DNA of 64,000 nucleotides, taken from positions 24,490,001 to 24,554,000 of the forward strand of contig OZ024757.1 of the NCBI GenBank assembly GCA_964016885.1, written 5' to 3'. The translations under genes were made by a program, and so were the position numbers. How positions within the stretch are numbered: the stretch's first letter is position 1; each line of letters opens with the position of its first letter. This DNA comes from Eledone cirrhosa. Its lineage: Eukaryota. The notes beneath the pieces are model-generated. The model was not told the origin of the DNA, made no database searches, and saw only the letters and a list, made by a program, of their open reading frames with translations. Shown in pieces: positions 3,801 to 61,314 of the stretch.

Positions 3801-3889
3801 TATAAACATACTAGCGTGGAAGATAGCCGTTAAACGATGATTATGATGATATATATATGTATATATATATATATATATATACATACATA

Positions 3890-6800
3890 CAGGGTCGCGC
3901 TAACGAGGTTGTAGAAATGCTTGAACGTAAGGAGGTCGATGTTTGTTGTATTCAAGAGACCAGGTGGAGGGGTGGGTCTGCTAGGTTCATTGAGGGTAAA
4001 AAACGATGTTATAAGCTTTTCTGGGTGGGAAACGACGATGGGCTGGGTGGAGTAGGAATCATGGTAGCAGAAAAGTGGGCAGATAAGATAATAGACGTAA
4101 ATAGAGTGAACGACAGAATAATTAAAATACGACTTGTCCTCAATAGAACTACGGTGACAGTAATATCTGCGTACGCACCCCAATCCGGACTGCCCGGCAC
4201 TATAAAAGACAGATTCTATGAGACACTGATGCTAACTCCCTCCCAAATATCCGACAGTGACTATATAATTATCGCAGGCGACCTAAATGGTCACGTTGGA
4301 CAACATTGTGACGGCTACGACGAAATCCATGGAGGCTATGGGTTTGGTACTAGAAATGAGGAAGGCTCCAGAATCCTGGAATTCTGTGATGCAAATAACC
4401 TAACTATCTGTAACACTAACTTAAAAAAACGTGACAATCACCTGATCACCTATAGATCCGGGGAACACACAAGCCAGGTAGATTATATCCTTACCAGAAG
4501 ACGTGACAGAGTGTCTGTTGTAAACACTAAATCCCTCCCCCATGAAGAATGCACCTCCCAACATAGACTGATAATTAGCGACCTCATAGTCAGGACGAGA
4601 CGTACTCGACAGCAGAAGAGGACTATCCTCAGGAGAAAAATATGGAAGCTAAAGGACCCCACAGCCAGGAATAAATTTCAAAGCATATTACTTGATGCTT
4701 TCGACAGTAAGGAAGAACATTTAGAGTCGGACAATATAGAGGGAGAGTGGGAATTTCTGAAAGCAAAACTGCTGTTGGCGACAGACGAAGTCTGTGGCTG
4801 GAGCAGGCCTGTAGGCAGGAGGAGAGTAACATGGTGGTGGAACAGTAAGGTGGAGGGGTCAATTAAGGCCAAAAAGCAGGCTTGGAAAGTATGGCGGGAT
4901 GGGGGAAGTAGAGAAGACTATCAAGTGGCCAGGAGGGAAGCTAGGAGAGAAGTGTACTTAGCAAGAAGGGAAGCTGAGGAAAGAAAGTTCAAGCATGTTC
5001 TACAACGCGATGACCAAAAACGTGAGGTGTTCAGGATTGCTAGGCAATGCGTCAAGGAAAACCGTGATATTGTCGGGGAGAAGTGTGTACTAAACGACGA
5101 TGGCACACTTGCCATCACTGACGCTGATAAGAAGGTAGCTTGGAAGTGTCACTATGAAAGGCTACTAAATGAGGAGAATAAATGGGAGAAAGACAGTCTC
5201 CCCCATATCGACCCAATAGAGGGACCAGCAGTGTTAGTCGAGGGGAGTATAATAAGTAAGGCAATCAAGGATATGAAGACGGGTAAGGCGGCTGGGCCTT
5301 CGGAAATAGTTGCTGAGATGCTGAAGGCATCTGGCACGGTGGGACACACCATGGTCACCCGCATAGTTAACCAAGTCGTACAGAATGGGGTTGTTCCGAA
5401 GGACTGGCATAGCAGCATCATCGTTAACTGTTATAAGGGTAAAGGAGACGCCCTAGATAGGAGTAACTATAGAGGCATTAAATTAATCGACCAGGTCATG
5501 AAGGTCACGGAAAAAGTAATAGCGCAACTAATCAGAGAGAGAATTGACCTAGATGAAATGCAGTTCGGGTTTGTGTCAGGCAAAAGTACCACAGACGCTC
5601 TTTTCATAGTACGACAACTACAGGAGAAGTACCTAACTAAAGGTAAACCCCTCTACTTAGCTTTTGTCGACTTGGAGAAAGCCTTCGACAGAGTCCCCCG
5701 CTCCATTATCTGGTGGGCTCTTAGAAAACTAGGCGTTGACGAATGGCTTGTGAGGGCTATACAAGCCATGTATAAAGAAACAGTCAGCAAGGTTAGAATT
5801 AACAACGAATATAGTGAAGAGTTTAGCGTAAAAGTTGGCGTCCATCAGGGCTCTGTTCTCAGCCCACTACTATTTATTATTGCCCTTCAGGCTATAACAG
5901 AGGAGTTCAAGACAGGCTGCCCATGGGAACTCCTATACGCAGACGACCTGACACTCATAGCGGAATCAATGGCCGAGCTGGAGAAGAAATTCCAAACATG
6001 GAAGCACGGCCTAGAGTCAAAAGGACTTAAAATTAACCTGGCTAAGACCAAAGTTCTAGTTTGTAGGAAAGAAAACAAGGCGGCGGTCCCTTCTGGGAAA
6101 TGGTCGTGCTCGGTGTGTAGGGAAGGCGTAGGTAGAAACTCCATTTTATGTCCTAAATGCAAAGTATGGGTGCATAAAAGATGTAGTGGGATCACAGGTA
6201 AGCTAACTAAGAACATAGATTTTACATGTGGCCGGTGCTCTGGTGCAATAAGTAGCAGCAAGTGCCCACAAAATACTAGCTCTTTCAATTGCGCAGAGGG
6301 TTCTATAGAAATAGTGGACAGCTTCCGTTACCTGGGCGATAAAATCAGCAGTGGGGGAGGGTGCTCTGAAAGTACTGTAGCTAGAGTCAGAACTGGTTGG
6401 AAAAAGTTCAGAGAGCTTATACCACTATTAGCTGCTAAAGGGTTCTCACTAAAAATGAAAGGCAGGTTGTACGATGCCTGCATACGAACAGCAATGCTGC
6501 ATGGCAGTGAGACCTGGGCATTGTGTGCAGAGGATATACGCAGACTAGAGAGGAACGAAGCTTGCATGCTCCGCTGGATGTGTAACAGTAATATACGTGA
6601 ACGGCAAAGCATAAACGAACTAAGGAAAAAATTAGAGATAAGAGGGATCAGATGTTGTTTACTCGAGAGAAGGCTACGTTGGTATGGACACGTGATGCGC
6701 ATGAAAGTCGATAGCTGTATAACAAAGTGCAGGGCAATAAAGATAGACGGTAGTCACGGAATAGGCAGACCTAGAAAAACCTGGGACGAGCTGATAAACT

Positions 6801-6892
6801 CCGACATCACACACTTACACCTCTCCAAGACAATGTCACTGGACCGAGACCTTTGGCGGTACTCAGTAACAGAGAAGACCCGCCTTACCTAG
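3890..6892 (+). CDS. RTE ORF: AP endonuclease + reverse transcriptase + PHD-like C4HC3 finger
   Basis: About 1000 aa without stops. The ORF-track start at 3857 lies in flanking (TA)n and is not the real start. Confidence 0.88.
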
Positions 6893-17665: not shown

Positions 17666-18699
17666 AATTCTTTTTTTCTTTAATCTGGCAGAATAAATAT
17701 TTTGTTTACATTAAGTGTTATCAACTATTACCAGTTTTGGTTGGTCTGTCAATCTTATTAAATATTTAAAAAGTCTTCATACTTTGTAGCAAACATTGAA
17801 GAGTCTAGTTTGAGGATTCCATTTTCTCTCCCTCTCATCAGCCATGAGGGAGGAGGGGCTGAAGAAAGACATGGCCTTTCCATCCTTCATAAGAAAAGGA
17901 AAGGAGCTGATCATCAGATCATACCAAGGAAACAATGTTTCCATTGGTCTTTCCATTGACAATACTATCTGACAGAAGAAAGGAACTGATCATCAGATCA
18001 TACCAAGGAAACAATGTTTCCATTGGTCTTTCCATTGACAATACTATCTGACAGAAGAAAGGAACTGATCATCAGATCAGATCAAGGAAACATTTCCATT
18101 GGTCTTTCCGGTGCTAATACTATCTGTCAGTTACAACTCCAGGTAGGAGAAAGGAGCTGATCATCAGATCAGACCAAGGAAACTATGCCTCAGTCACAAC
18201 TCCCAAAATTTGATTACATAAATTCCAGTGCTTTGAGGTCAGTAATATGAAAAAAATCAAAGACTACGATATTTTTCAAGCAGAAAACATTTAAATATTT
18301 TCACTATTTCTTAATATACTATTAGGTGGTGGTGGTGGTGGTGGTGGTGGCAGCGGCAGTGGAGTGTAGGGGTGCAAAGTGTGAGAAAAACAAACATACA
18401 TGGTTACTGAAGTGAGAGAGACACACCCACATCTGTTCAATATAATGAAAGAGTCACTGTGTACAGATATGTTTCACCATCATCATCACCATTTCATGGC
18501 TATTTTCCACGCTTGCATGGGTTAGACGAGTTCTCATGCTCTGAGGGTAGACAGAGAGGTCAAATGACTGATTCTTTCTCATACATTCTGTACCCAACCA
18601 CTTCAGGGTGTGTACCAGGTTTGTTTTCTTACAACACGAGCACTACCACCTGAAAGGATGGCCTGGGTGATTTTGTCATGGCACCAGTACAACCACATT

Positions 18700-19017
18700 A
18701 CAAGGGGAACTGGATGCTTTTGTTGTGGCACCAGCACTACCACTTTACTGAGAGGACAGGGTGCTTTTGTTGTGGCACCAGCACTACCACTTTACTGAGA
18801 GGACAGGGTGCTTTTGTTGTGGCACCAGCACTACCACTTTACTGAGTGGACTGGGTGCTTTTGTTGTGGCACCAGCACTAAAACTTTACTGAGTGGACTG
18901 GGTGCTTTTGTTGTGGCACCAGCACTACCACTTTACTGAGTGGACTGGGTGCTTTTGTTGTGGCACCAGCACTACCACTTTACTGAGTGGACTGGGTGCT
19001 TTTGTTGTGGCACCAGC
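18700..19017. repeat. 47-bp minisatellite
   Basis: Unit GGCACCAGCACTACCACTTTACTGAGTGGACTGGGTGCTTTTGTTGT; related arrays at 60120-60560 and 45120-45540 (opposite strand); motif also occurs in the SINE/RTE 3' UTR. Confidence 0.85.
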
Positions 19018-23394: not shown

Positions 23395-26389
23395 TCATCA
23401 TCATCATCAACGTTTAACGTCCGTGTTCCACGCTTGCATGGGTTTGGACGGGGGTAGTCCCACTTGAGGCAAGAGTGGTTGTCTTGCTCGCATAGGACTG
23501 TCTGGCAGGTTTTCTACAGTTGGATGCCCTTCCTAACACCAACCACATTTACAGTGTGGGTCTGGGAGGTTTTTACCGTGTTGCCTACACGGCCACATTA
23601 CAGCGTGGACTGTGTGTTTTTTTGTCGTGACACCTAGACGATCTCATTTGTTTCGGCCTGGATGGCGCGGCACCAACATAACTTTACATAGAACGGGGTG
23701 GTGTGGATGGGGTGGGGGTGGTGGTGGTGGGACGGGGTGTATTTTGTTAGAGATGCCTACTGGCTGGAGTAGGTTTTACTATATATTTAGGTAAGGCGGG
23801 TCTTCTCTGTTACTGAGTACCGCCAAAGGTCTCGGTCCAGTGACATTGTCTTGGAGAGGTGTAAGTGTGTGATGTCGGAGTTTATCAGCTCGTCCCAGGT
23901 TTTTCTAGGTCTGCCTATTCCGTGACTACCGTCTATCTTTATTGCCCTGCACTTTGTTATACAGCTATCGACTTTCATGCGCATCACGTGTCCATACCAA
24001 CGTAGCCTTCTCTCGAGTAAACAATATCTGATCCCTCTTATCTCTAATTTTTTCCTTAGTTCGTTTATGCTTTGCCGTTCACGTATATTACTGTTACACA
24101 TCCAGCGGAGCATGCAAGCTTCGTTCCTCTCTAGTCTGCGTATATCCTCTGCACACAATGCCCAGGTCTCACTGCCATGCAGCATTGCTGTTCGTATGCA
24201 GGCATCGTACAACCTGCCTTTCATTTTTAGGGAGAACCCTTTAGCAGCTAATAGTGGTATAAGCTCTCTGAACTTTTTCCAACCAGTTCTGACTCTAGCT
24301 ACAGTACTTTCAGAGCACCCTCGTCTGCGTATAGGAGTTCCCATGGGCAGCCTGTCTTGAACTCCTCTGTTATAGCCTGAAGGGCAATAATAAATAGTAG
24401 GGGGCTGAGAACAGAGCCCTGATGGACGCCAACTTTTACGCTAAACTCTTCACTATATTCGTTGTTAATTCTAACCTTGCTGACTGTTTCTTTATACATG
24501 GCTTGTATAGCCCTCGCAAGCCATTCGTCAATGCCTAGTTTTCTAAGAGCCCACCAGATAATGGAGCGGAGGACTCTGTCGAAGGCTTTCTCCAAGTCGA
24601 CAAAAGCTAAGTAGAGGGGTTTACCTTTAGCTAGGTACTTCTCCTGTAGTTGTCGTACTATGAAAAGAGCGTCTGTGGTACTTTTGCCTGACACAAACCC
24701 GAACTGCATTTCATCTAGGTCAATTCTCTCTCTGATTAGTTGCGCTATTACTTTTTCCGTGACCTTCATGACCTGGTCGATTAATTTAATGCCTCTATAG
24801 TTACTCCTATCTAGGGCGTCTCCTTTACCCTTATAACAGTTAACGATGATGCTGCTATGCCAGTCCTTCGGAACAACCCCATTCTGTACGACTTGGTTAA
24901 CTATGCGGGTGACCATGGTGTGTCCCACCGTGCCAGATGCCTTCAGCATCTCAGCAACTATTTCCGAAGGCCCAGCCGCCTTACCCGTCTTCATATCCTT
25001 GATTGCCTTACTTATTATACTCCCCTCGACTAACACTGCTGGTCCCTCTATTGGGTCGATATGGGGGAGACTGTCTTTCTCCCATTTATTCTCCTCATTT
25101 AGTAGCCTTTCATAGTGACACTTCCAAGCTACCTTCTTATCAGCGTCGGTGATGGCAAGTGTGCCATCGTCGTTTAGTACACACTTCTCCCCGACAATAT
25201 CACGGTTTTCCTTGACGCATTGCCTAGCAATCCTGAACACCTCACCGTTTTGGTCATCGCGTTGTAGAACATGCTTGAACTTTCTTTCCTCAGCTTCCCT
25301 TCTTGCTAAGTACACTTGTCTCCTAGCTTCCCTCCTGGCCACTTGATAGTCTTCTCTACTTCCCCCATCCCGCCATACTTTCCAAGCCTGCTTTTTGGCC
25401 TTAATTGACCCCTCCACCTTACTGTTCCACCACCATGTTACTCTCCTCCTGCCTACAGGCCTGCTCCAGCCACAGACTTCGTCTGTCGCCAACAGCAGGT
25501 TTGCTTTCAGAAATTCCCACTCTCCCTTTTTCTTGTCCGACTCTAAATGTTCTTCCTTACTGTCGAAAGCACCAAGTAATATGCTTTGAAATTTATTCCT
25601 GGCTGTGGGGTCCTTTAGCTTCCATATTTTTCTCCTGAGGATAGTCCTCTTCTGCTGTCGAGTACGTCTCGTCCTGACTATGAGGTCGCTAATTATCAGT
25701 CTATGTTGGGAGGTGCATTCTTCATGGGGGAGGGATTTAGTGTTTACAACAGACACTCTGTCACGTCTTCTGGTAAGGATATAATCTACCTGGCTTGTGT
25801 GTTCCCCGGATCTATAGGTGATCAGGTGATTGTCACGTTTTTTGAAGTTAGTGTTACAGATAGTTAGGTTATTTGCATCACAGAATTCCAGGATTCTGGA
25901 GCCTTCCTCATTTCTAGTACCAAACCCATAGCCTCCATGGATTTCGTCGTAGCCGTCACAATGTTGTCCAACGTGACCATTTAGGTCGCCTGCAATAATT
26001 ATATAGTCACTGTCGGATATTTGGGAGGTAGTTAGCATCAGTGTCTCATAGAATCTGTCTTTTATAGTGCCGGGCAGTCCGGATTGGGGTGCGTACGCAG
26101 ATATTACTGTCACCGTAGTTCTATTGAGGACAAGTCGTATTTTAATTATTCTGTCGTTCACTCTATTTACGTCTATTATCTTATCTGCCCACTTTTCTGC
26201 TACCATGATTCCTACTCCACCCAGCCCATCGTCGTTTCCCACCCAGAAAAGCTTATAACATCGTTTTTTACCCTCAATGAACCTAGCAGACCCACCCCTC
26301 CACCTGGTCTCTTGAATACAACAAACATCGACCTCCTTACGTTCAAGCATTTCTACAACCTCGTTAGCGCGACCCTTTAGGGTGCCTAC

Positions 26390-26392
<3 letters not shown>
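23395..26392 (-). mobile_element. RTE LINE copy 2, near-identical to 3890-7295, with 412-bp internal deletion
   Basis: ORFs 24299-26350 and 23787-24344; junction YAD|EG at about 24321; (GAT)n tail at 23395. Confidence 0.95.
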
Positions 26393-26437
<45 letters not shown>

Positions 26438-28619: not shown

Positions 28620-29480
28620 TGTCTCAGGAAAAATCCCTAGACAGATTTTACGGGCAAAACCCATTAGCAGGAAACCCAGGGATAGACCCCCCAAGGAAGA
28701 CGGTTGGATAACATTCATGAGCTTAAGAATCCCTAGATAGATTTTACAGGCAAAACCCATTAGCAGGAAACCCAGGGATAGACCCCCCAAGGAAGACGGT
28801 TGGATAACATTCATGAGCTTAAGAATCCCTAGATAGATTTTACAGGCAAAACCCATTAGCAGGAAACCCAGGGATAGACCCCCCAAGGAAGACGGTTGGA
28901 TAACATTCATGAGCTTAAGAATCCCTAGATAGATTTTACAGGCAAAACCCATTAGCAGGAAACCCAGGGATAGACCCCCCAAGGAAGACGGTTGGATAAC
29001 ATTCATGAGCTTAAGAATCCCTAGATAGATTTTACAGGCAAAACCCATTAGCAGGAAACCCAAGGATAGACCCCCCAAGGAAGACGGTTGGATAACATTC
29101 ATGAGCTTAAAAATCCCTAGATAGATTTTACAGGCAAAACCCATTAGCAGGAAACCCAAGGATAGACCCCCCAAGGAAGACGGTTGGATAACATCCATGA
29201 GTTAAGAATCCCTCGACAGATTTTCTGGCAAAACCCATTAGCAGGAGACCCAAAGGAAAATGGTTGGATAATATCCATGAGCTTAAGAATCCCTAGATAA
29301 ATTTTACAGGTAAAACCAGCTGGCAGGAAACCCAGAGCAATATGGCTGGATAACAGCCATGAGATCAGCTGGTCATGCTTGGGGATCCAGCTGGATCAAT
29401 TGGAGACAGTTGCTTCTGACAGGACTCGCTGGAAGGAATGTTTGAGGACTCTGACTCTACAACCCTCTCAGGAATAAGTG
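28620..29480 (+). repeat. 96-bp minisatellite (about 7 units) amplified from an RTE-like ORF C-terminus
   Basis: Period 96 (28725 to 28821); reads IPRQILQAKP.SRKPR.RP..RWLD and continues into TVASDRTRWKECLRTL; unamplified relative at 60760-60990. Confidence 0.85.
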
Positions 29481-30461: not shown

Positions 30462-32920
30462 TATGTGTGTGTGTGTGTCTGATGGTAGCTAAGATCCTTC
30501 CATAGGCGGTATGCCGGTTGTGCACTCTATATATGCATATGTATATATATATATATATATATATATCATCATCATCATCATTTCATTTTACGTCCGCTTT
30601 TCCCTGCTTGCAAGGGTGGGACGGGAACTGATTCTGGCTTGATTTCTACAGCTGGATGCCCTTCTTAACACCAACCTCATTTACAGTGAGTGCTGGGGGC
30701 TTTTTTGCCGCGGCACCTCCACGACCACTTTGCAGTGGAATGATAGAGACCCCAGTCCCTATCATCTCATTTCTACAGCTGAGTAAACTGGAGCAATGTG
30801 AAATAAAGTGTCTTGCTCAAGGAAACAACACATTACCCGGTCTGAGAATTGAACTCACAACCTTTCGATTGCAAGGCCAATGCTCTAACCACTACACACA
30901 TACAAAGAGATCAACCGCAGATGTGGCCTGGCTGCCAGGGTCATGCACTCCCTATGTAAGCTCCTTTTGGTGCCAAAGCTCAATCTCCGAGAAGACTAAG
31001 TTCTGTATTTACAATGCATGAATCCTCCCCATTCTCCTCTAAGGAGTAGAAACATGGTCCCTCACAAAGAACCTGGCAAAAAAAGTGATTGGCGTTAGGA
31101 AGGACATCTAGTTTAGATGTCCTTCCTAACGCCAATCACTTAAGGTAGTCAGTCCAACTTTTCCGGTCTCAGAATTTGATTACCTGTCCAACCCATGCCA
31201 ACATGGAAAGCAGACAACATGATGATATACATATATAGATACATACATACATACACAACTCTGCCAAGGTTAACTTTGCCTTTCATCCTTACGGGGTTAA
31301 TAAAATAAAGTACCAGTAACGGACTGGCGTTGATTTCATCAACTTTCCCTTCCCCCAAAATTGCCCCACTGCCTAAATCGGAAACCATATATAATATTAA
31401 ATCATTCAGTGCAGTGTAATGGGGTGTAGGGTGGTGTACTGAGGTGTAGGCTGGTGTGGTGTAGTGTAGGGTGGGGTGGAGTGGTGTAGGGCAGTGTAGT
31501 GTAGGGTGGTGTGCTGTAGGGTGGTGTGGTGTAGTGTAGTGTAGTGTGGTGTGGTGTACTGAGGTGTGGGAGGGTTTGAGGTGGGGTGTGATATGGTGTG
31601 GTGTTGTGTGGTGAGGTGTACTGAGGTGTGGTGTGTATGGTATGGTATGCGTGGTGTGGTGTAGGGTGGTGTACTTAGGTCTGGTGTGTATGGTATGGTA
31701 TGGTATGGTGTGGTGTAGATGTATTGAGGTGTGGTGTGTATGGTGTGGTGTAGGGTGGTGTACTGTGGTATGTATGGTGTGCGTGGAGTAGTGCGATGTA
31801 GTGGGAAGTGTGTGTTTATGTGGTGAAATATAGTGTGGTGTGCATGTGTTTGAGGGATGTGCACATATGCATGCATGTGTTTATGTGTGTGTTTTACATA
31901 TGCATGTATGTGTGTATCATCATCATCACTGTTTTATGTCCGTTCTTCCACGCTAGCATGGGTTAGACGGGTTGTCCTGTTGTGGGCAGTGTCCGGTCAG
32001 CTGACCTTGTCTTGCTCATACGGGAACTGATTCTGGCTTGATTTCTACAGCTGGATGCCCTCCCTAACACCAACCTCATTTACAGTGTGGGCTGGGTGCT
32101 TTTTTTACCGTGGCACCTCCATGACCACTTTGCAGTGGAATGATAGGGACCCCAGTCCCTATCATCTCATTTCTACAGTTGAGTAAACTGGAGCAATGTA
32201 AAATAAAGTGTCTTGCTCAAGGAAACAACACATCACCCGATCTGAGAATTGAACTCACAACCTTTCCATTGCAAGTCCAATGCTCTAACCACTAAGCCAT
32301 GTGCCTTCATGTGTATGTGTGTGTTATATGCATGTTTGTGTGTATGCATGAGTGTATGTGTATGGTGTATGCACATGTGTGTGTGGTGTATGCATGTTTG
32401 CATGTGTGTATATGTGTGTCTGGTGTATGCATGTTTGTGTGTGTGGGTGCAGTGTATGTACTTTTGTGTGTGTATGTGTGGTGTATGCACGTATGTATGT
32501 GTATATGTGTGTGTGTGTGGTGTATGCACGTTTGTGTGTGTGTGCAGTGTATGTACATTTGTGTGTATGCACTATGTGTGTCATGTATGCATGTTTGTGT
32601 GCGTATGTGTGTGTCTGGTGTATGTGTGTGTGTGGTGTGTGAGTGTTTATGACTGTAGAGTAGTATATATGACTGTGGGGTTGTGTGTGAGTCAGACAAT
32701 GACAACTATAAAACTATCATTACAGTTTTCTCACGAAAGTTTTTTGCCTATAAAAAAATGTGAAAGAAACATGGTCTAATTTTTTGTACAATAGAGAACC
32801 ACCCAGTGTTTCTATTGTTGGAGAAACATCTACAACTTCTGGGCTGAGAACAAACCACTATACCTAACATTTGGTGGTCTGAGGAGATGGGTGCTAACTG
32901 GGTACACCACTTTCTATAAT

Positions 32921-34830
32921 GTAAATGTGAGAGATAGGCAGAGCTTGGATAAACTGAGGGAGAAACTGGGTTTTAAGAGGAATTTGAAGTTGGGTGCAGT
33001 GTAAATGTGAGAGAAAGACAGAGCTTGGATAAACTGAGGGAGAAACTGGGTTTTAAGAGGAATCTGAAGTTGGGTGCAGTGTAAATGTGAGAGAAAGACA
33101 GAGTTTGGATAAACTGAGGGAGAAACTGGGTTTTAAGAGGAATCTGAAGTTGGGTGCAGTGTAAATGTGTGAGAAAGACAGAGCTTGGATAAACTGAGGG
33201 AGAAACTGGGTTTTAAGAGGAATCTGAAGTTGGGTGTAGTGTAAATGTGTGAGAAAGACAGAGCTTGGATAAACTGAGGGAGAAACTGGGTTTTAAGAGG
33301 AATCTGAAGTTGGGTGCAGTGTAAATGTGAGAGAAAGACAGAGCTTGGATAAACTGAGGGAGAAACTGGGTTTTAAGAGGAATCTGAAGTTGGGTGCAGT
33401 GTAAATGTGTGAGAAAGACAGAGCTTGGATAAACTGAAGGAGAAACTGGGTTTTAAGAGGAATCTGAAGTTGGGTGCAGTGTAAATGTGTGAGAAAGACA
33501 GAGCTTGGATAAACTGAGGGAGAAACTGGGTTTTAAGAGGAATCTGAAGTTGGGTGCAGTGTAAATGTGTGAGAAAGACAGAGTTTGGATAAACTGAGGG
33601 AGAAACTGGGTTTTAAGAGGAATCTGAAGTTGGGTGCAGTGTAAATGTGAGAGAAAGACAGAGCTTGGATAAACTGAGGGAGAAACTGGGTTTTAAGAGG
33701 AATCTGAAGTTGGGTGCAGTGTAAATGTGTGAGAAAGACAGAGCTTGGATAAACTGAGGGAGAAACTGGGTTTTAAGAGGAATCTGAAGTTGGGTGCAGT
33801 GTAAATGTGAGAGAAAGACAGAGCTTGGATAAACTGAGGGAGAAACTGGGTTTTAAGAGGAATCTGAAGTTGGGTGCAGTGTAAATGTGAGAGAAAGACA
33901 GAGCTTGGATAAACTGAGGGAGAAACTGGGTTTTAAGAGGAATCTGAAGTTGGGTGCAGTGTAAATGTGAGAGAAAGACAGAGCTTGTATAAACTGAGGG
34001 AGAAACTGGGTTTTAAGAGGAATCTGAAGTTGGGTGCAGTGTAAATGTGAGAGAAAGACAGAGCTTGGATAAACTGAGGGAGAAACTGGGTTTTAAGAGG
34101 AATCTGAAGTTGGGTGCAGTGTAAATGTGTGAGAAAGACAGAGCTTGGATAAACTGAGGGAGAAACTGGGTTTTAAGAGGAATCTGAAGTTGGGTGCAGT
34201 GTAAATGTGAGAGAAAGACAGAGCTTGGATAAACTGAGGGAGAAACTGTGTTTTAAGAGGAATCTGAAGTTGGGTGCAGTGTAAATGTGTGAGAAAGACA
34301 GAGCTTGGATAAACTGAGGGAGAAACTGGGTTTTAAGAGGAATCTGAAGTTGGGTGCAGTGTAAATGTGAGAGAAAGACAGAGTTTGGATAAACTGAGGA
34401 AGAAACTGGGTTTTAAGAGGAATCTGAAGTTGGGTGCAGTGTAAATGTGAGAGAAAGACAGAGCTTGGATAAACTGAGGGAGAAACTGGGTTTTAAGAGG
34501 AATCTGAAGTTGGGTGCAGTGTAAATGTGAGAGAAAGACAGAGTTTGGATAAACTGAGGGAGAAACTGGGTTTTAAGAGGAATCTGAAGTTGGGTGCAGT
34601 GTAAATGTGTGAGAAAGACAGAGCTTGGATAAACTGAGGGAGAAACTGTGTTTTAAGAGGAATCTGAAGTTGGGTGCAGTGTAAATGTGAGAGAAAGACA
34701 GAGCTTGGATAAACTGAGGGAGAAACTGGGTTTTAAGAGGAATCTGAAGTTGGGTGCAGTGTAAATGTGAGAGAAAGACAGAGCTTGGATAAACTGAGGG
34801 AGAAACTGGGTTTTAAGAGGAATCTGAAGT
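32921..34830 (+). repeat. 80-bp minisatellite (about 24 units) derived from RTE ORF 3' region
   Basis: Unit GTAAATGTGAGAGAAAGACAGAGCTTGGATAAACTGAGGGAGAAACTGGGTTTTAAGAGGAATCTGAAGTTGGGTGCAGT (VNVRERQSLDKLREKLG); runs out into VQKRRLRWY at 34831. Confidence 0.92.
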
Positions 34831-35027: not shown

Positions 35028-35500
35028 CGAGATATGTAGAGAGCTACTGTCAGACAGGTGAGAGATGTGTAGAGAGTTACAGTTAGACAGGTGAGAGATG
35101 TGTAGAGAGTTACAGTCAGACAGGTGAGAGATGTGTAGAGAGTTACAGTCAGACAGGTGAGAGATGTGTAGAGAGTTACAGTCAGACAGGTGAGAGATGT
35201 GTAGAGAGTTACAGTCAGACAGGTGAGAGATGTGTAGAGAGTTACAGTCAGACAGGTGAGAGATGTGTAGAGAGTTACAGTCAGACAGGTGAGAGATGTG
35301 TAGAGAGTTACAGTCAGACAGGTGAGAGATGTGTAGAGAGTTACAGTCAGACAGGTGAGAGATGTGTAAAGAGTTACAGTCAGACAGGTGAGAGAGATGT
35401 AGAGAGTTCCAGTCAGACAGGTGAGAGATGTAGAGAGTTACAGTCAGACAGGTGAGAGATGTAGAGAGCTACAATGAGACAGGTGAGAGAGATGTAGACA
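35028..35500. repeat. 33-bp minisatellite (about 14 units)
   Basis: AGAGATGTGTAGAGAGTTACAGTCAGACAGGTG. Confidence 0.9.
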
Positions 35501-38352: not shown

Positions 38353-39939
38353 ATACTATTAGCTATGTCCCTTTCCATCTTAGCAATGTTTTGGCCACCC
38401 TTAGCGTCACCCGACACCCTCAATAAAACCCCAACACCCTCAGCAAAGCCCCCAAATCCTCAGTAAAACCCCAACTCCTTTAGCAACACCCCAATACCCT
38501 TAGTAAGAGCCTGTCCTGTCATCAACATAATCCCTCGTTATCAAATTTCAGTCACAGTATATTACAGGTTTGGAGATACAGAGGAGATAACTGGTTTTGG
38601 AGATGGGCGAGGTGGGGTGGGGGTGGGGGGTGGGGGTGGGGGGGTGAATGAGTGGATAGCTAGATCAGTTGTGGGTGGTGGAGACTGTCATGGTTATGGT
38701 GGTGGTGGAGACTGTCATGGTTATAGTGGTGGTGGTGGTTAGGGGGAGGTTGGAAGTGTGGGAATAATATGTCATAGAAACCAGGCCATACACACGGACT
38801 GACGCATACAGACACACACACACTTACACATACACAAAAGAAACCACTATAGCACTCCAGCCCATAACCCTGGAAAAGTGGCCTGAGACAGTAATTTTTG
38901 TATAAAAGCTCACAATAGGCCGGTTCCTCATACCACCACCTTCTCCAACCCCCACCCCCTCTCTCCTATGACTCACAGTTTTGAGGTCATGTGAATATTT
39001 TGGTCTGCAACAGTAAAGACACTGGAGTCGGTGAGTTAGCAGAAATAACTGACAGCATTTGGTCTTCTTCTCCAGGGAGACCCCAGTTCAAATCCTACCT
39101 GGGTGGAGGTGAGGGTGGAAGCGAAAGGTGTGGGCGGTGGGGGACACAATGTCAGGTCATGTTGACCTCTTTTTGTTTTCATAATATATGACTTTCGCAA
39201 ATTACTTGGAAATTGAAAGGCCACGAGGTCGGTGGTCAGAGGTCGATGTAGTGACTAAAATATACCCCAACTCTGGTTAACAAATATAGGAATCTTATTC
39301 AGAAAGTGGGTGACAATTATAGGGGTGACCCAATATGAAGGGAGGAAGGAATGAACAGAACTTGTTAAAGTGCTAGATGTCTAAAAAAAATGTCTAAAGT
39401 CTGCCTCGAGCCCAGAGCCTCTTCAAGCCAGTACTTACCCCAGTTTCTGTGGTGTGAAGTAACTAAGAGTATAAGACACCTTCCTGGACAGGATGCCAGT
39501 CCATTGAGGGTTAAACAGCTGTTGCTGGTACTCATTTTCACCTGAGTATACAGGAAATGAAGTGTCTTGCTCAAGAACACAACACAGCCCAGGAATCAAA
39601 CCAACGACATTATGATTATAAGTCCAAATCACTTACCACTAGGCCACCCACCAGGGACAGGATATTAGGGCAGCAAATTGGCAGAGTCGTTAAAATGTCG
39701 GATAGAATGCTTTGTGGTATTTATTCTGGTTCTCTGCTCTCTGAGTTCAGCCAAGGTCAACTTTGCCTTTCATCGATTTGAGGTCGATAAAAAAAGTACC
39801 AGTCTTGTACTGGGGTTGATTTCAGTGTGGTTTGGGGGTAGGGATAGAAGCAAACTTGTCCCTGTGGGCTAGAGACAGAGAGGGGGGGACAGATTAAGAT
39901 ATTAATACTCACATGTCCCTGGGGGCAAGGATCACATTA

Positions 39940-40670
39940 AGCTATTAACAACACTTACCTGCCCCTGAGGGTTGTAGCAGGGGGCAGGTAACACATTAAG
40001 ATGTTAACAACACTTACCTGCCCCTGAGGGTTGTAGCAGGGGGCAGGTAACACATTAAGATGTTAACAACACTTACCTGCCCCTGAGGGTTGTAGCAGGG
40101 GGCAGGTAACACATTAAGTTATTAACAACACTTACCTGTCCCTGGGGGTTGTAGCAGGGGGCAGGTAACACATTAAGATGTTAACAACACTTACCTGCCC
40201 CTGAGGGTTGTAGCAGGGGGCAGGTAACACATTAAGATGTTAACAACACTTACCTGCCCCTGAGGGTTGTAGCAGGGGGCAGGTAACACATTAAGATGTT
40301 AACAACACTTACCTGTCCCTGAGGGTTGTAGCAGGGGGCAGGTAACACATTAAGATGTTAACAACACTTACCTGCCCCTGAGGGTTGTAGCAGGGGGCAG
40401 GTAACACATTAAGATGTTAACAACACTTACCTGCCCCTGAGGGTTGTAGCAGGGGGCAGGTAACACATTAAGATGTTAACAACACTTACCTGCCCCTGAG
40501 GGTTGTAGCAGGGGGCAGGTAACACATTAAGATGTTAACAACACTTACCTGCCCCTGAGGGTTGTAGCAAGGGGCAGGTAACACATTAAGATGTTAACAA
40601 CACTTACCTGCCCCTGAGGGTTGTAGCAGGGGGCAGGTAACACATTAAGATGTTAACAACACTTACCTGT
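39940..40670 (-). repeat. 59-bp tandem array (12 units) starting at the GTF3C5 exon E donor
   Basis: ACACTTACCT recurs at 39951, 40010 ... 40659; each unit contains CAG|GTAAGT on the gene strand. Confidence 0.92.
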
Positions 40671-40780
40671 CCATTGTTCTGGTTCAACAGGGACTGGACA
40701 TCATCATCCACAATGTCACATATCTGGTAGAACATCTGGCGGAAAGGTGGCAGGATGTGGGCTCGGAACTTGTAGGTGCT
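40667..40780 (-). CDS. GTF3C5: GTF3C5 internal exon E
   Basis: CCCAG| acceptor, CAG|GTAAGT donor, 114 nt, phase 0-0. STYKFRAHILPPFRQMFYQICDIVDDDVQSLLNQNNGQ vs recalled human SVYIFREGALPPYRQMFYQLCDLNVEELQKIIHRNDGA. Too short for the ORF track. Confidence 0.92.
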
Positions 40781-40784
40781 CTGG

Positions 40785-41345
40785 GTAGATAGATAGATAG
40801 ATAGATAGGTAGACAGGTAGGTAGGTAGATAGATAGCTAGACAGGTAGGTAGGTAGGTAGATGGAGAAGTAGATAGATAGGCAGGTAGGTAGGTAGGTAG
40901 ATAGAGAAGTAGATAGATAGGCAGGTAGGTAGGTAGGTAGATAGGTAGGTAGGTAAGTAGGTAGGTAGATAGATAGAGAACTAGATAGATAGGCAGGTAG
41001 GTAGGTAGGTAAGTAGGTAGGTAGATAGAGAACTAGATAGATAGGCAGGTAGGTAGGTAGGCAGGCAGGTAGATAGAGAAGTAGATAGATAGGCAGGTAG
41101 GTAGATAGAGAAGTAGATAGATAGGCAGGTAGGTAGGCAGGTAGGTAGATAGAGACGTAGATAGATAGGCAGGTAGGTAGATAGATAGAGAAGTAGATAG
41201 ATAGGCAGGTAGGTAGATAGAGAAATAGATAGATAGGCAGGTAGGTAGGCAGGTAAGTAGGTAGATAAAGAGAGAGGTTGAGAGGTAGATAGAGGGAGAG
41301 GTAATGAGGTAGATAGAGAGGACAAGTAGATAGACAGATAGATAC
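40785..41345. repeat. (GATA)n/(GGTA)n compound microsatellite forming the pyrimidine-rich acceptor region of exon E
   Basis: Direct reading. Confidence 0.85.
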
Positions 41346-44868: not shown

Positions 44869-46037
44869 CTGCAGAAGATCCCCCTCCCCCTGTGTGCACA
44901 AAGGGAACTAGCTTGCAGCAATCCTTTGTCCCCCCCCCCCCAAAGTAATAATACCCCGATCACACTTAAATATCCTACATAGCTAATCAATGTCTAGCTT
45001 GCCACCCCAACCCCAACACATCTCACCTGCCCAGCTCATGAGGGCTAAACATCTGACCGCGCAGAATAGTGAATCATGATAAAAAGCACGAAACCATCCT
45101 GTAAGCTGATCTGGCATCACAACAAAAGCACCCAGCCCACACTGTAAAATGGTTGTGTTGTGTTGGTGTCACGATAAAAAAAACCAAGTCCACACTGTAA
45201 AGTGGTCGTGTTGGTTTCAAAATAAAAAGCACCCAGCCCACACTGCAAAGTGGCCATGCTGGTATCACGATAAAAAGCACCCAGCCCACACTGTAAAGTA
45301 GTCATGTTGGTGCCATGATAAAAAGCACCCAGACCACACTGTAAAGTGGTCATGTTGGTGCTATGATAAAAAGCACCTGGTCCACACTGTAAAGTAGTCA
45401 TGTTGGAGCCATGATAAAAAGCACCCGGCCCAAACTGTAAAGTAGTCATGTTGGTGCCATGATAAAAAGCACCCGGTCCACACTGTTAAGTGGTCGTGTT
45501 AGTGCCACGATAAAAAGCCCCCAGTCCAAACTGTAAATGTGCTTGGTGTTAGGAAGAGCATCCAGCTGTAAAAACCAAGCCAGAAACAGTTCAGTATGAG
45601 CAAGACAAGGTCATCTGACCTGACTTGACTTACAATGGGACAATATGTCTAATTCATGCTGGCATGGAAGAATGGAAGTTAAACAGTCATGATGACGATT
45701 TCCCTACTAGCAAGGGTTTGATGGGTTTACATAGACCAAGTCAGTACAGACCTCCCAGACAGACTGAGGGGTCTGCATCTCACTTATATAGGGTTATATG
45801 TTCTATTGAGTGAAGAGGAAAAGTTGTACCTTTTGACACAAACTGAAAGGTCCTCCAAACCCCTTGCTTGGCAAGCTTTATATCGTTGGATATCTTTCCT
45901 AACACCAATCACCTTACCCAATAATTAATAATAATAAAGCTGAAGTGTAAGTCAAATAATGTGTGGATTTTTATTGACAAAATTGGCAACATGACCACAC
46001 ACACACACATATATATATGTATATATATATATATATA

Positions 46038-52811: not shown

Positions 52812-52981
52812 CTCAGCTTCTTCTTTGGTACGAGTTGTAGTTTCTCTGTGGTCTTTCCCTGGTAACAGTCCTGACCGGTTGATGGTAGCAACTTGACCAG
52901 TCTGTTTAGAGATGACCGTTGGTAGTTTATAACTGAAGGTGCTACGTTTGGCCTTGATGTCCAGCCCACCACTGCCACTTC
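52812..52981 (-). CDS. GTF3C5: GTF3C5 internal exon D
   Basis: TTGCAG| acceptor, GAG|GTTTGG donor, 170 nt, phase 1-0. LDIKAKRSTFSYKLPTVISK vs recalled human LPVKAKRSTYNYSLPITVKK. Confidence 0.9.
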
Positions 52982-54350: not shown

Positions 54351-54558
54351 GCTGCCGAACTCTAAAGTCAACAATTTGGTATTTCTTTGCTGCTGGGTCT
54401 TTGCGTGGGTCATAGCCAAACCGAACCCACAAGCTGCGCCATGGCCCTGTGATGAAGTAGTAGGCAATGAGGGGGAGCACATACTTCAAGGTGTCACGGC
54501 GGCAGTCGGTGGCCCCACAGATTCCATTCCTTGACCAAATTGGTTTCTCGTTGAACAA
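54351..54558 (-). CDS. GTF3C5: GTF3C5 internal exon C (Tau95 domain core)
   Basis: GACAG| acceptor, C|GTGAGT donor, 208 nt, phase 0-1. LFNEKPIWSRN...LPLIAYYFITGPWRSLWVRFGYDPRKDP...YQIVDFR is diagnostic of TFIIIC63/Tau95. Confidence 0.96.
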
Positions 54559-56840: not shown

Positions 56841-56977
56841 CTCTCGGAGTTTCTCTTCCAATGATGGATTCTTCACTTTGGATCTGAGGGTGGCCTCTGC
56901 CCCAGCCATTGGCACTGAGGGGACAGTCTTGTCCTCGAAGTTGACAAATATTGTGTGACGAGATCGTCTTTGTCTCG
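56841..56977 (-). CDS. GTF3C5: GTF3C5 internal exon B
   Basis: TTTCAG| acceptor, GAG|GTTAGT donor, 137 nt, phase 1-0. RQRRSRHTIFVNFEDKTVP...EEKLRE vs recalled human RARRPHNAIFVNFEDEEVP...EEELRK. Confidence 0.92.
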
Positions 56978-58015
56978 CTGAAAGAAGAGATAAGGGAGAC
57001 AGTGAAATGGTGAAGAGGGCACAGGAAGATATATTGTCATCATCATCATCATTATAACCACTAGCATCATCATTATCATCATCCCCACTAGGGTGGTGGA
57101 TTGGCAGTATCGGTAGAGGGTCAGACGCCATGCTTTGACACAGAGAGTTACAACCCTTTCCAATCTGAGTTCAAATCCCGCCGAGATTAACTTTGCCTTT
57201 CATCCTTATGGGGTCGATAAAATAAAGTACCAGTAATGCACTGGGTAATTGCTGGCCTTGTGCCAAAAGTAGAAACAATTATCATCATCTCCACTAGTAC
57301 TATAATCCTCACTACTAGTACTACCATCATCACCATTAACATCACTACCACTAGCATCACCATCACCTTCACCATCATTTGCATCATTATCACTAGCATT
57401 ATCATCACCACCATTTACATCATCATCATTACTATTATAATTATCATCATCATCAACACTAACATCCTCCTCCTCCTGTGTTTGCTATACCATCTAGAGC
57501 TTATTCTGATAAAACTGGTGTTGAGAGACTGAGAGTACAAGACTTCTCCCTGGACAAGATGCCAGTCCATCGCAGGGTTAACTCCCAGCGACTGTTTATG
57601 GCACTCCTTTTCAACTGAGTGGACGGGAACAACAAGGACACATCATGCCACCTGGTCAAGGAATAAAACCCACAACATGACAGTCATAAGATTACCCGCT
57701 AACCACTTGGCCTAGTTAAGCGTCCATATAAAGCTGTTAAGCCATGACAGACTAAGAAAGGTATCTAACACTAATGTCTAAAGTCTGTCTCGAGCCTGGA
57801 AGCTCATCAAGCCGGTGCTTATCCCGATTTCCTTGGCATTAAGTAACTGAGAGTACAAGACACCCTCGTGGACAGAACGCCAATCCATCGCAGAGTTAAA
57901 CCTCCGGCTATGACTGGTACTCATTTTCAGTTGAGTGTATTGGAGCAACCTGAAATAAAGTGTTTTGCTACATGACATTCAGAAACATTTTTTTCACACT
58001 CAGAGTTGCTGAAGC

Positions 58016-58942
58016 ATGGAACAAACTACCTGCATCAGTTGTTAGCTGTCGAGACACTGCATCCTTTAAAACTTCCATGGAACAAACTACCTGCATCAGT
58101 TGTTAGCTGTCGAGACACTGCATCCTTTAAAACCTCCATGGAACAAACTACCTGCATCAGTTGTTAGCTGTCGTGACACTGCATCCTTTAAAACCTCCAT
58201 GGAACAAACTACCTGCATCAGTTGTTAGCTGTCGAGACACTACATCCTTTAAAACTTCCATGGAACAAACTACCTGCATCAGTTGTTAGCTGTCGAGACA
58301 CTGCATCCTTTAAAACCTCCATGGAACAAACTACCTGCATCAGTTGTTAGCTGTCGTGACACTGCATCCTTTAAAACTTCCATGGAACAAACTACCTGCA
58401 TCAGTTGTTAGCTGTCGAGACACTGCATCCTTTAAAACCTCCATGGAACAAACTACCTGCATCAGTTGTTAGCTGTCGAGACACTGCATCCTTTAAAACC
58501 TCCATGGAACAAACTCCCTGCAACAGTTGTTAGCTGTCAGGACACTGCATCCTTTAACACCTCCATGGAACAAACTCCCTGCAACAGTTGTTAGCTGTCA
58601 GGACACTGCAATCTTTAACACCTCCATGGAACAAACTCCCTGCAACAGTTGTTAGCTGTCAGGACACTGCATCCTTTAACACCTCCATGGAACAAACTAC
58701 CTGCAACAGTTATTAGCTGTCAGGACATTGCATCCTTCAAAACTTCCATGCTTCCTGAAATTCGCCAACACTAAACCTGATATTCCCCCTCCATACACAC
58801 AAGCATGTATGTCTGTATGTATATCATGACCCATACACTGTTCACTTTCCTGACATTTGTACATTAATCTATGTACTATGCATGCACTTTTGATAAGGTG
58901 TAGTGCACCTGAGCACAGTACACAATAATTTTCATTATTATT
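58016..58942 (+). repeat. 61-bp minisatellite (about 12 units) from a CR1/L2-like ORF2 end, followed by its 3' UTR
   Basis: Unit reads WNKLPASVVSCRDTASFKTS; continues MLPEIRQH*, UTR and (ATT)n tail; unamplified relative at 48866-49108. Confidence 0.85.
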
Positions 58943-60110: not shown

Positions 60111-61044
60111 TTTTGTCATAGCCCCAGCATTACCACCTTACTGAGTGGACTGGGTGCTTTTACCATGGCACCAGCACTACCACCTTACTGAGTGGACTGG
60201 GTGCTTTTACCATGGCACCAGCACTACCACCTTACTGAGTGGACTGGGTGCTTTTACCATGGCACCAGCACTACCACCTTACTGAGTGGACTGGGTGCTT
60301 TTACCATGGCACCAGCACTACCACCTTACTGAGTGGACTGGGTGCTTTTACCATGGCACCAGCACTACCACCTTACTGAGTGGACTGGGTGCTTTTACCA
60401 TGGCACCAGCACTACCACCTTACTGAGTGGACTGGGTGCTTTTACCATGGCACCAGCACTACCACCTTACTGAGTGGACTGGGTGCTTTTACCATGGCAC
60501 CAGCACTATCACTTTACTGAGTGGACTGGGTGCTTTTACCAGCACTACCACCTTATAGAAAAGATTGGCTGTTTTTGTTGCAACTCCACCACTACCACCT
60601 TACAGTGTGACCTGGGAGTTTTTATCATGGCACCAACACTTCCTAAAGTTACAATATTTTTAAGAGTTTTCCTCGAGAAGTCAGCTTTTTTTTTTCTTTC
60701 TTTCATAATAACCACGAAAAGTGGCTGAAATGTGGTTCCTCAGACCTCAGAGAATCGCAACATTGAGAGATCACAGCTCTGATATTACGGGCAGGCGGTT
60801 AGAATGTCTCAAGAATCACTGGACAGATTTTACAGGCAAAACCAAGTGGCAGCAGACCCTGAGGTAGACCCTGAGCAGGAAGGTCGTGTTTGGAGATGAT
60901 TGCTTCTAACAGGTCCCGCTGGAAGGAGTGTTTGAGGACTCTGCCCCATAATCTTCCCAGGAATGAATGGGCAAAGAAGAAAAAGAAGAAATAGTAGCTA
61001 AATTGTCCCTCAAAATATATTTTAAAAAAATACGAAATCCTTAC

Positions 61045-61314
61045 CTGTTCCAATTAGATGACTTGGACGTTGATCTTGGGGGTTTACAAAGCCAGAACGA
61101 TGTTGCATTTCTGATCTGTAAAGGTATTCCATGGGTGTGTCCATTCGGGAGAAGATAATGGGTGGCAGGAATAAGGGTACATCAACCTTCAGCCAGTCTT
61201 TAACATCTTCTGGTGACTTAACAACCAATTTATCAAATATACTGGAAAATATCTTGGTTTCACTATCACCAGTCGAATGCGATATCATTGGTAAATACTG
61301 AAAGTCTACCATGC
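61045..61314 (-). CDS. GTF3C5: GTF3C5 (TFIIIC subunit 5) internal exon A
   Basis: TTACAG|GC acceptor, AG|GTAAGG donor, 270 nt, phase 1-1. Encodes GMVDFQYLPM...VPLFLPPIIFSRMDTPMEYLYRSEMQHR...LIGT, matching recalled vertebrate GMSDFQYL...LYIPPPIFSRLDAPVDYFYRPETQHR. Confidence 0.93.

Follow-up and report, generated by a model that had tools for sequence, protein, structure and literature searches.

The GTF3C5 Locus

The window, by which we mean the whole 64-kb stretch analyzed here, consists of AT-microsatellite-rich animal DNA and carries five exons of GTF3C5 on its minus strand, which when joined give an open frame of 299 residues ending in NQNNGQ. The exon at 61045-61314 was placed by protein match, with 93% identity to Octopus vulgaris GTF3C5 over the matched part and 79% to Argonauta, and on the strength of this match the source genome is octopus-like. 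Further exons lie at 56841-56977, 54351-54558, and 52812-52981, the last of these preceding the exon of interest (40667-40780), a coding exon of 114 nt in phase 0 at both ends whose 3' end, GGA CAG, encodes Gly-Gln. Its translation (STYKF...NQNNGQ) has matches among the human GTF3C5 chains of the PDB (E 4e-8) and is identical to the matching stretch of octopus GTF3C5, in which GQ is followed by ETVCDEKDGW. The authentic donor of this exon, CAG/GTAAGT (40661-40669), fits the consensus perfectly and opens an intron that occupies positions 1-40666 and has a 59-bp tandem array at its 5' end. Because the next GTF3C5 exon (ETVCDEKDGW...) was not found within the 64-kb window, and so lies outside it, we infer that the intron exceeds 40.6 kb. 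The other four GTF3C5 introns span 1.4-12 kb, and an assembly join is possible.

Repeats flank the exon on either side. Upstream, its acceptor adjoins a 480-bp (CTAC/CTAT)n-type microsatellite (40784-41267), which is the source of the acceptor tract, and downstream lies the array. The AlphaFold model of octopus GTF3C5 is of low confidence (mean pLDDT 47.7) and places the junction in a predicted loop between helices 422-429 and 449-463 with a pLDDT of about 50; neither was used as evidence. A contig set whose kind is not on record (X1) matched the flank 38955-39421 without differences at a depth of 2, covered 40372-40605 in part and did not cover the exon at all. Among the 15 of its 101 joints that were listed, no exon-derived joint was present, and this set is uninformative on splicing.

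Structure of the Array

TRF places the repeat at 39921-40669 (period 59, 12.7 copies, 97% matches), and with the unit alignment and the count of a donor 14-mer it resolves into 12 homogeneous 59-bp units on the minus strand (39959-40666), in agreement with the first-pass annotation, which had described a 59-bp array at a GTF3C5 donor. Each unit is made up of a 53-nt GT...CAG segment, which is intronic, and six further nucleotides that copy the exon end in frame, as GGGCAG in 10 of the 12 and as GGACAG in units 6 and 9. The only AGs in any of the 12 units stand at positions 4-5 (inside GTAAGT), 52-53, and 58-59, and the earlier observation that no AG intervenes past the donor is correct for all of them. 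Eight of the 12 units are identical and only six of 708 bases are variant. Every unit leads into a perfect consensus donor, CAG/GTAAGT, and these decoys start at 40607, 40548, 40489, 40430, 40371, 40312, 40253, 40194, 40135, 40076, 40017, and 39958 (minus strand). The count of 12 extra consensus donors is likewise upheld by the donor 14-mer, which occurs 13 times in the window and every time within the array (chance mean 0.9; none of 100 shuffles reached 13). A transposon origin visible in the window was considered and rejected, as the 14-mer is confined to the array. Metagenome scans returned no matches to the array unit pattern or to the pattern of exon end plus donor.

Three further elements recur in each unit and are given here for unit 1 (minus strand). 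A branch-like hexamer at 40644-40649 puts its branch A at intron position +22. An inverted copy of the donor region at 40630-40640, repeating every 59 nt, is hairpin arm and pyrimidine tract in one. A CAG with the 6-nt copy of the exon end (40608-40616) forms a candidate acceptor and a candidate Gly-Gln microexon, the second AG abutting the decoy GT. The layout behind the earlier terms "mini-intron" and "microexon" is real, but the terms themselves are interpretation rather than observation. The earlier description of the unit is also sound as far as it goes, although it missed two diverged units on the same strand. Unit 13 (39913-39958, 46 nt) comprises a 40-nt GT-AG segment plus GGACAT, lacks 13 nt of the modern unit and has an imperfect inverted arm, while unit 14 (39856-39912, 57 nt) comprises a 51-nt GT-AG segment plus GGACAA, with a GTGAGT donor and an arm complementary to the GGACA form. 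Assemblies often err in tandem arrays, and this one is known from a single assembly. However, its distinct variants follow an ordered pattern that grades into the two diverged units. Reads that had been collapsed or expanded too far would not produce such a pattern, and an assembly artefact is extremely unlikely to account for the array or for its copy number.

Judged by its sequence, the feature is a donor-spanning minisatellite of the F7 IVS7 type. It is a head-to-tail array whose first unit lies across the exon-intron boundary, and all 12 downstream pseudo-donors are identical to the authentic donor. The class is known from human genes, and this array extends it to a cephalopod.

Origin and History

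The unit would have been born when a segment spanning the exon-intron boundary was duplicated locally in tandem, probably with the aid of microhomology, for which GGACA, shared by exon end and intron, is a plausible candidate at the first duplication. In the alignment, units 13 and 14 and the junction of units 9 and 10 have the exon's own GGACA, which suggests that GGA is ancestral and GGG derived. Coding constraint was rejected as a reading of the synonymous GGA CAG variants; given that GGA is the exon's own form and stands in both old units, they are better understood as a matter of descent. The arm has changed in step, with that of unit 14 complementing GGACA (-9.9 kcal/mol) and the modern arm complementing GGGCA, a difference of one compensatory pair. 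Template switching at a quasi-palindrome can yield a compensatory arm change of this kind, and the pair could derive from such switching or from selection. The arm was probably perfected by template switching or else fixed during homogenization, as GGA gave way to GGG with a corresponding change in the arm, and the DNA hairpin probably promotes slippage and expansion. None of the six variants hits a splice signal, an outcome with a chance probability of 0.32 in which five sites are too few to tell, and the sparing of splice signals was rejected as a signal of constraint.

Minisatellites are common in the window, with eight arrays in 64 kb (period at least 33, at least six copies, at least 84% matches). 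The seven other homogeneous arrays lie at 32920-34830, 28632-29252, 58015-58750, 60117-60541, 18659-19017, 35029-35498, and 45124-45537, with periods of 80, 96, 61, 47, 47, 33, and 48, respectively. Those of 47-49 bp have motifs in common and look derived from one dispersed repeat family. The window also holds an open 1021-aa LINE-type ORF (3827-6892, plus strand) with endonuclease and reverse transcriptase. Its residues 761-804, which immediately follow the reverse transcriptase core, match a PHD finger (PF00628) with an E value of 2e-5, at the curated cut-off. In such elements PHD fingers are known mainly from ORF1. A second copy, apparently of the same LINE family, lies at 23787-26395 on the minus strand in two frames (ORFs of 698 and 217 aa), and its 217-aa piece reads nearly as the C-terminus of the 1021-aa ORF.

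Hairpins and Donor Accessibility

Each decoy donor has perfect inverted arms of 11 nt on both sides, 15 nt upstream and 22 nt downstream, so the 11-bp pairing reported earlier is available in both registers, and the first arm can indeed pair with the real donor, at 9 of 10 positions. This arm had also been regarded as a mimic of the U1 5' end. It is no more than a purine-rich consensus donor in reverse complement and is thereby pyrimidine-rich and U1-like by construction; any inverted consensus donor resembles the U1 5' end, and we rejected the likeness as separate evidence. Tract, U1 likeness, and hairpin are one event and not three, as would be expected if an inverted copy of the donor region had supplied hairpin and pyrimidine run together.

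Predicted hairpin energies are -22.0 kcal/mol for a decoy and -11.4 kcal/mol for the real donor. The register in which the donor precedes its arm (-22.0) is slightly better than that in which the arm comes first (-19.9), and the better register covers the real donor too. Across six span limits, the real donor is predicted to be unpaired with a probability of 0.13-0.24 and the decoys with one of 0.06-0.24, and of the five donors of the gene the real one is the least accessible in folding (0.22 vs. 0.33-0.54 for the other four). The earlier proposal that a hairpin hides the decoy donor thus stands with respect to the predicted hairpin but not with respect to any clear sparing of the real donor. 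Since the real donor is likewise covered and the unpaired ranges overlap, these models allow at most a modest hairpin bias toward it. The unit folds below its dinucleotide shuffles, both as RNA (z -2.1, 2/40 as good) and as DNA (z -3.0, 0/40). One of six other arrays tested equals it, a 79-bp array of three copies at 17899-18130 (RNA z -2.3, DNA z -3.1). A single stretch related to the 79-bp array was read in translation near 56710-56585.

These figures bear on whether the hairpin has been selected to silence the decoys, with arm and decoy kept matched so that the array can persist beside the donor of an essential gene. The 11-bp arms are perfect, an old GGACA unit has a complementary arm where a modern GGGCA unit has a matching one, and the real donor still has a mismatch and a hairpin half as stable, all of which would suit such selection. 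However, the compensatory change amounts to a single pair, which template switching at a quasi-palindrome predicts as well, and the preferred register pairs each donor with the downstream arm, the real donor included. Units 6 and 9 carry a mismatch, and the 79-bp array folds equally far below its shuffles. In human F7, moreover, pseudo-sites are silent without such a structure (PMC1557585). Selected masking is quite unlikely on this balance.

The Acceptor-Like Layout

The first-pass annotation held every unit to be a mini-intron. Branch-consensus As occur in the unit at +14 and +22 only, and the minimum distance from 5' splice site to branch in fly is about 35 nt (PMC5762160). By this fly value, from which that of octopus may differ, a single unit lacks a branch consensus at a workable distance from its donor, so a single 53-nt unit would make a poor intron and the claim is unlikely to hold. 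An intron of two units (112 nt) has normal geometry, with distances of 81 nt between donor and branch A and of 31 nt between branch A and AG. The tract of the unit has pyrimidines at 13 of 17 positions but is C-rich, with T at only three, against 7-10 T in all five of the gene's real acceptors; among 86 background YAGs with at least 13 pyrimidines only one has three T or fewer. C-rich tracts bind U2AF poorly.

As to layout, a frame-preserving 6-nt Gly-Gln segment, within the 3-27 nt range of microexons, stands between an AG and a GT. An in-frame YAG 3-27 nt upstream is found at 17.5% of 8837 intronic positions; adding at least 13 of 17 pyrimidines leaves 0.9%, and adding 30 AG-free nucleotides leaves 0.4%, on criteria that were chosen after the unit had been seen. 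Both diverged units retain the AG-6 nt-GT arrangement. The second AG resembles a ratchet point for recursive splicing in that AG and GT are juxtaposed and a strong donor, CAG/GTAAGT, is regenerated in all 12 units. However, only 8 of 17 positions before it are pyrimidines, a competing AG stands 6 nt upstream, and all such sites fall in the first 0.75 kb of more than 40.6 kb, which would not subdivide the intron. The array takes up its first 2%, and recursive splicing there would take less than 0.8 kb off an intron longer than 40 kb.

Use of a decoy alone would add 59n nt, and all 12 such products frameshift or hold a stop. Pseudo-exons running from a unit AG to a later donor (65, 124, 183, and 242 nt) all frameshift or stop as well, and only the 6-nt form is in frame. 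At the protein level the junction falls among conserved residues (N431, G433, E435, C438), and of 127 scored homologues 126 have a spacing of 26 residues across it and one has 27. Neither GQGQ nor a GQ insertion was found in any of these 127 proteins, none of which is known to be from this species, to which the array may be specific. The set comprised 130 proteins, of which three without a required motif were dropped (two unrelated 55-aa entries and one read-through model); 127 remained, mostly vertebrate, with 11 cephalopod or cephalopod-like. With this composition, the spacing shows by sequence comparison a constraint on length and not the absence of an isoform. The two 55-aa entries (P0008 and P0010) are filed under the octopus GTF3C5 cluster, and the read-through entry is a cuttlefish GTF3C5 gene model (P0011) that continues past this donor into intronic sequence, probably through an error of the model.

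It is conceivable that the internal acceptors are active. The real donor would be joined to the AG of unit 2 or a later one (an intron of at least 112 nt) and the adjacent donor would then be used, leaving a 6-nt Gly-Gln microexon if the first AG served or no trace if the second acted as a ratchet; repeated rounds could yield up to about six GQ. The normal geometry of the two-unit intron, the in-frame outcome of each such path, and a layout that is uncommon by chance and retained in two old units speak for this, and human reporters can arrive at a 6-nt microexon in two steps (PMC6224609). That route is, however, repressed by the exon junction complex, which in human cells acts against donors lying within 15 nt of a newly formed junction, as an engineered 6-nt microexon showed (PMC6224609). 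In the array, moreover, the tract is T-poor and half buried in the predicted hairpin, the ratchet AG is weak as described, none of the homologues has a GQ insertion, and the position of the array makes it useless for subdividing the intron. Active acceptors are highly unlikely in our estimate, and the (GQ)n ladder proposed earlier is unproven and probably not made. More improbable still is an extension in which the array acts as a self-rescuing donor cassette. As each unit would bring its own acceptor, commitment to a decoy would still end in an in-frame mRNA, with the upstream units removed and one or more Gly-Gln microexons or no trace left behind, while hairpins would tune the shares of the paths and repeat number would set a ladder of GTF3C5 isoforms. 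If this were true, microexons and introns would have been caught in the act of arising from a minisatellite.

Comparison With Known Systems

A first repeat unit lying across an exon-intron boundary is described for human F7, IFI6 (6-16), CBS intron 13, LMNB2, and PDGF intron 4 (PMC1557585). Of these, F7, LMNB2, and PDGF use the authentic donor only, whereas IFI6 and CBS use two pseudo-sites in addition (PMC1557585). With the 37-bp VNTR of F7 intron 7 and these other genes the octopus array shares the reiteration of a donor down the intron in identical copies. It differs in being invertebrate, in the perfect consensus of its donors (CV 74 in F7), and in an 11-bp arm over the donor, which the authors did not find in F7. 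The octopus unit also has an AG 6 nt before the decoy, a feature that the human units may share, and, unlike the F7 VNTR, the array is known from the sequence of one assembly.

Other systems are less close. The cryptic microexons and RS-exons under control of the exon junction complex likewise place a 5' splice site 0 or 6 nt behind a 3' splice site, with a further donor beyond, but their acceptor is real and used (PMC6224609), whereas the octopus acceptor is a T-poor candidate repeated 12 times. Recursive splicing in long introns has in common with the array an AG/GT that regenerates a perfect donor and an intron of more than 40 kb, although the octopus sites all lie within 0.75 kb of the donor, follow a weak tract at the ratchet AG, and are known only as sequence. 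In intron gain by tandem genomic duplication, too, a duplicated AG/GT segment makes new GT-AG intervals (PMC3265369; PMC4974935). There, however, exonic DNA with an internal AGGT is duplicated and one copy becomes the intron, whereas in octopus an existing boundary is copied into an intron and 53 of the 59 nt are intronic. A literature search reaching few subscription papers and no supplementary files found no repeat unit with its own microexon, nor did passages of a tandem-repeat review describe one (PMC13196383).

Donor Choice at the Array

We consider it likely (probability about 0.7) that splicing still takes place at the first, authentic donor and that the array is removed inside one long intron and is probably neutral. 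Donor use in octopus is judged here from mammals, and all statements on splicing outcome are to be read in that light. The real donor would be picked by exon definition across the 114-nt exon and by 5'-first choice among donors, as in human F7. Hairpins, whose stability on decoys is twice that on the real donor, would passively tip the choice in that direction as well. The AG-6 nt-GT layout would be a largely silent by-product, and hairpin and acceptor-like AG are both best read as by-products. This reading is favored because the same architecture occurs in a known class of which F7, LMNB2, and PDGF use the authentic donor only (PMC1557585); because minisatellites are common in the window, the geometry of the single unit falls short of the fly minimum and the tract is T-poor; because the spacing at the junction is fixed in 126 of 127 homologues and all decoy-only products frameshift or stop; and because the variants give no sign of splice-signal constraint and the predicted hairpin is stronger on decoys. 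Several points stand against it, namely the rarity of the acceptor layout (0.9% or 0.4% of intronic positions, by post hoc criteria), the folding of the unit below shuffles, the low accessibility of the real donor, the retention of AG-6 nt-GT in both diverged units, and the one compensatory arm change.

A further point against it is the perfect match of the decoys to the consensus, the sole condition under which F7 pseudo-sites competed. F7 pseudo-sites are functional yet silent, no masking structure being found by the authors, and in minigenes they competed only when made perfect, reaching 70-90% use against a weaker first site (PMC1557585). The octopus decoys are perfect, but the first site is equally perfect and is first in order. 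The perfect decoys nonetheless raise the prospect of leakage, in which a measurable share of transcripts uses decoys or pseudo-exons (65, 124, 183 nt) and goes to nonsense-mediated decay (NMD), so that GTF3C5 output falls with copy number in a CBS-like manner. The decoys equal the real donor, their products and those of the pseudo-exons all frameshift or stop, and two pseudo-sites are in use in IFI6 and CBS. CBS activity, moreover, is reported to fall with repeat number (PMC5188458, citing Lievers 2001), which by analogy gives the earlier idea of a copy-number rheostat a human precedent. On the other hand, the F7 competition was against a weaker first site, hairpins are stronger on the decoys, and copy number is known from one assembly. 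Leakage of this kind is unlikely, yet leakage into NMD would be a likelier side effect than a (GQ)n ladder.

Significance

Overall, splicing at the authentic donor past a probably neutral array would extend a known human arrangement to a cephalopod. The array is also a natural test case, with 13 identical perfect donors in a row and a hairpin and an acceptor-like site in each unit. It could test first-donor choice outside mammals and with perfect donors, the condition under which F7 pseudo-sites competed. Should its internal acceptors be used, it would be a minisatellite minting in-frame microexons.
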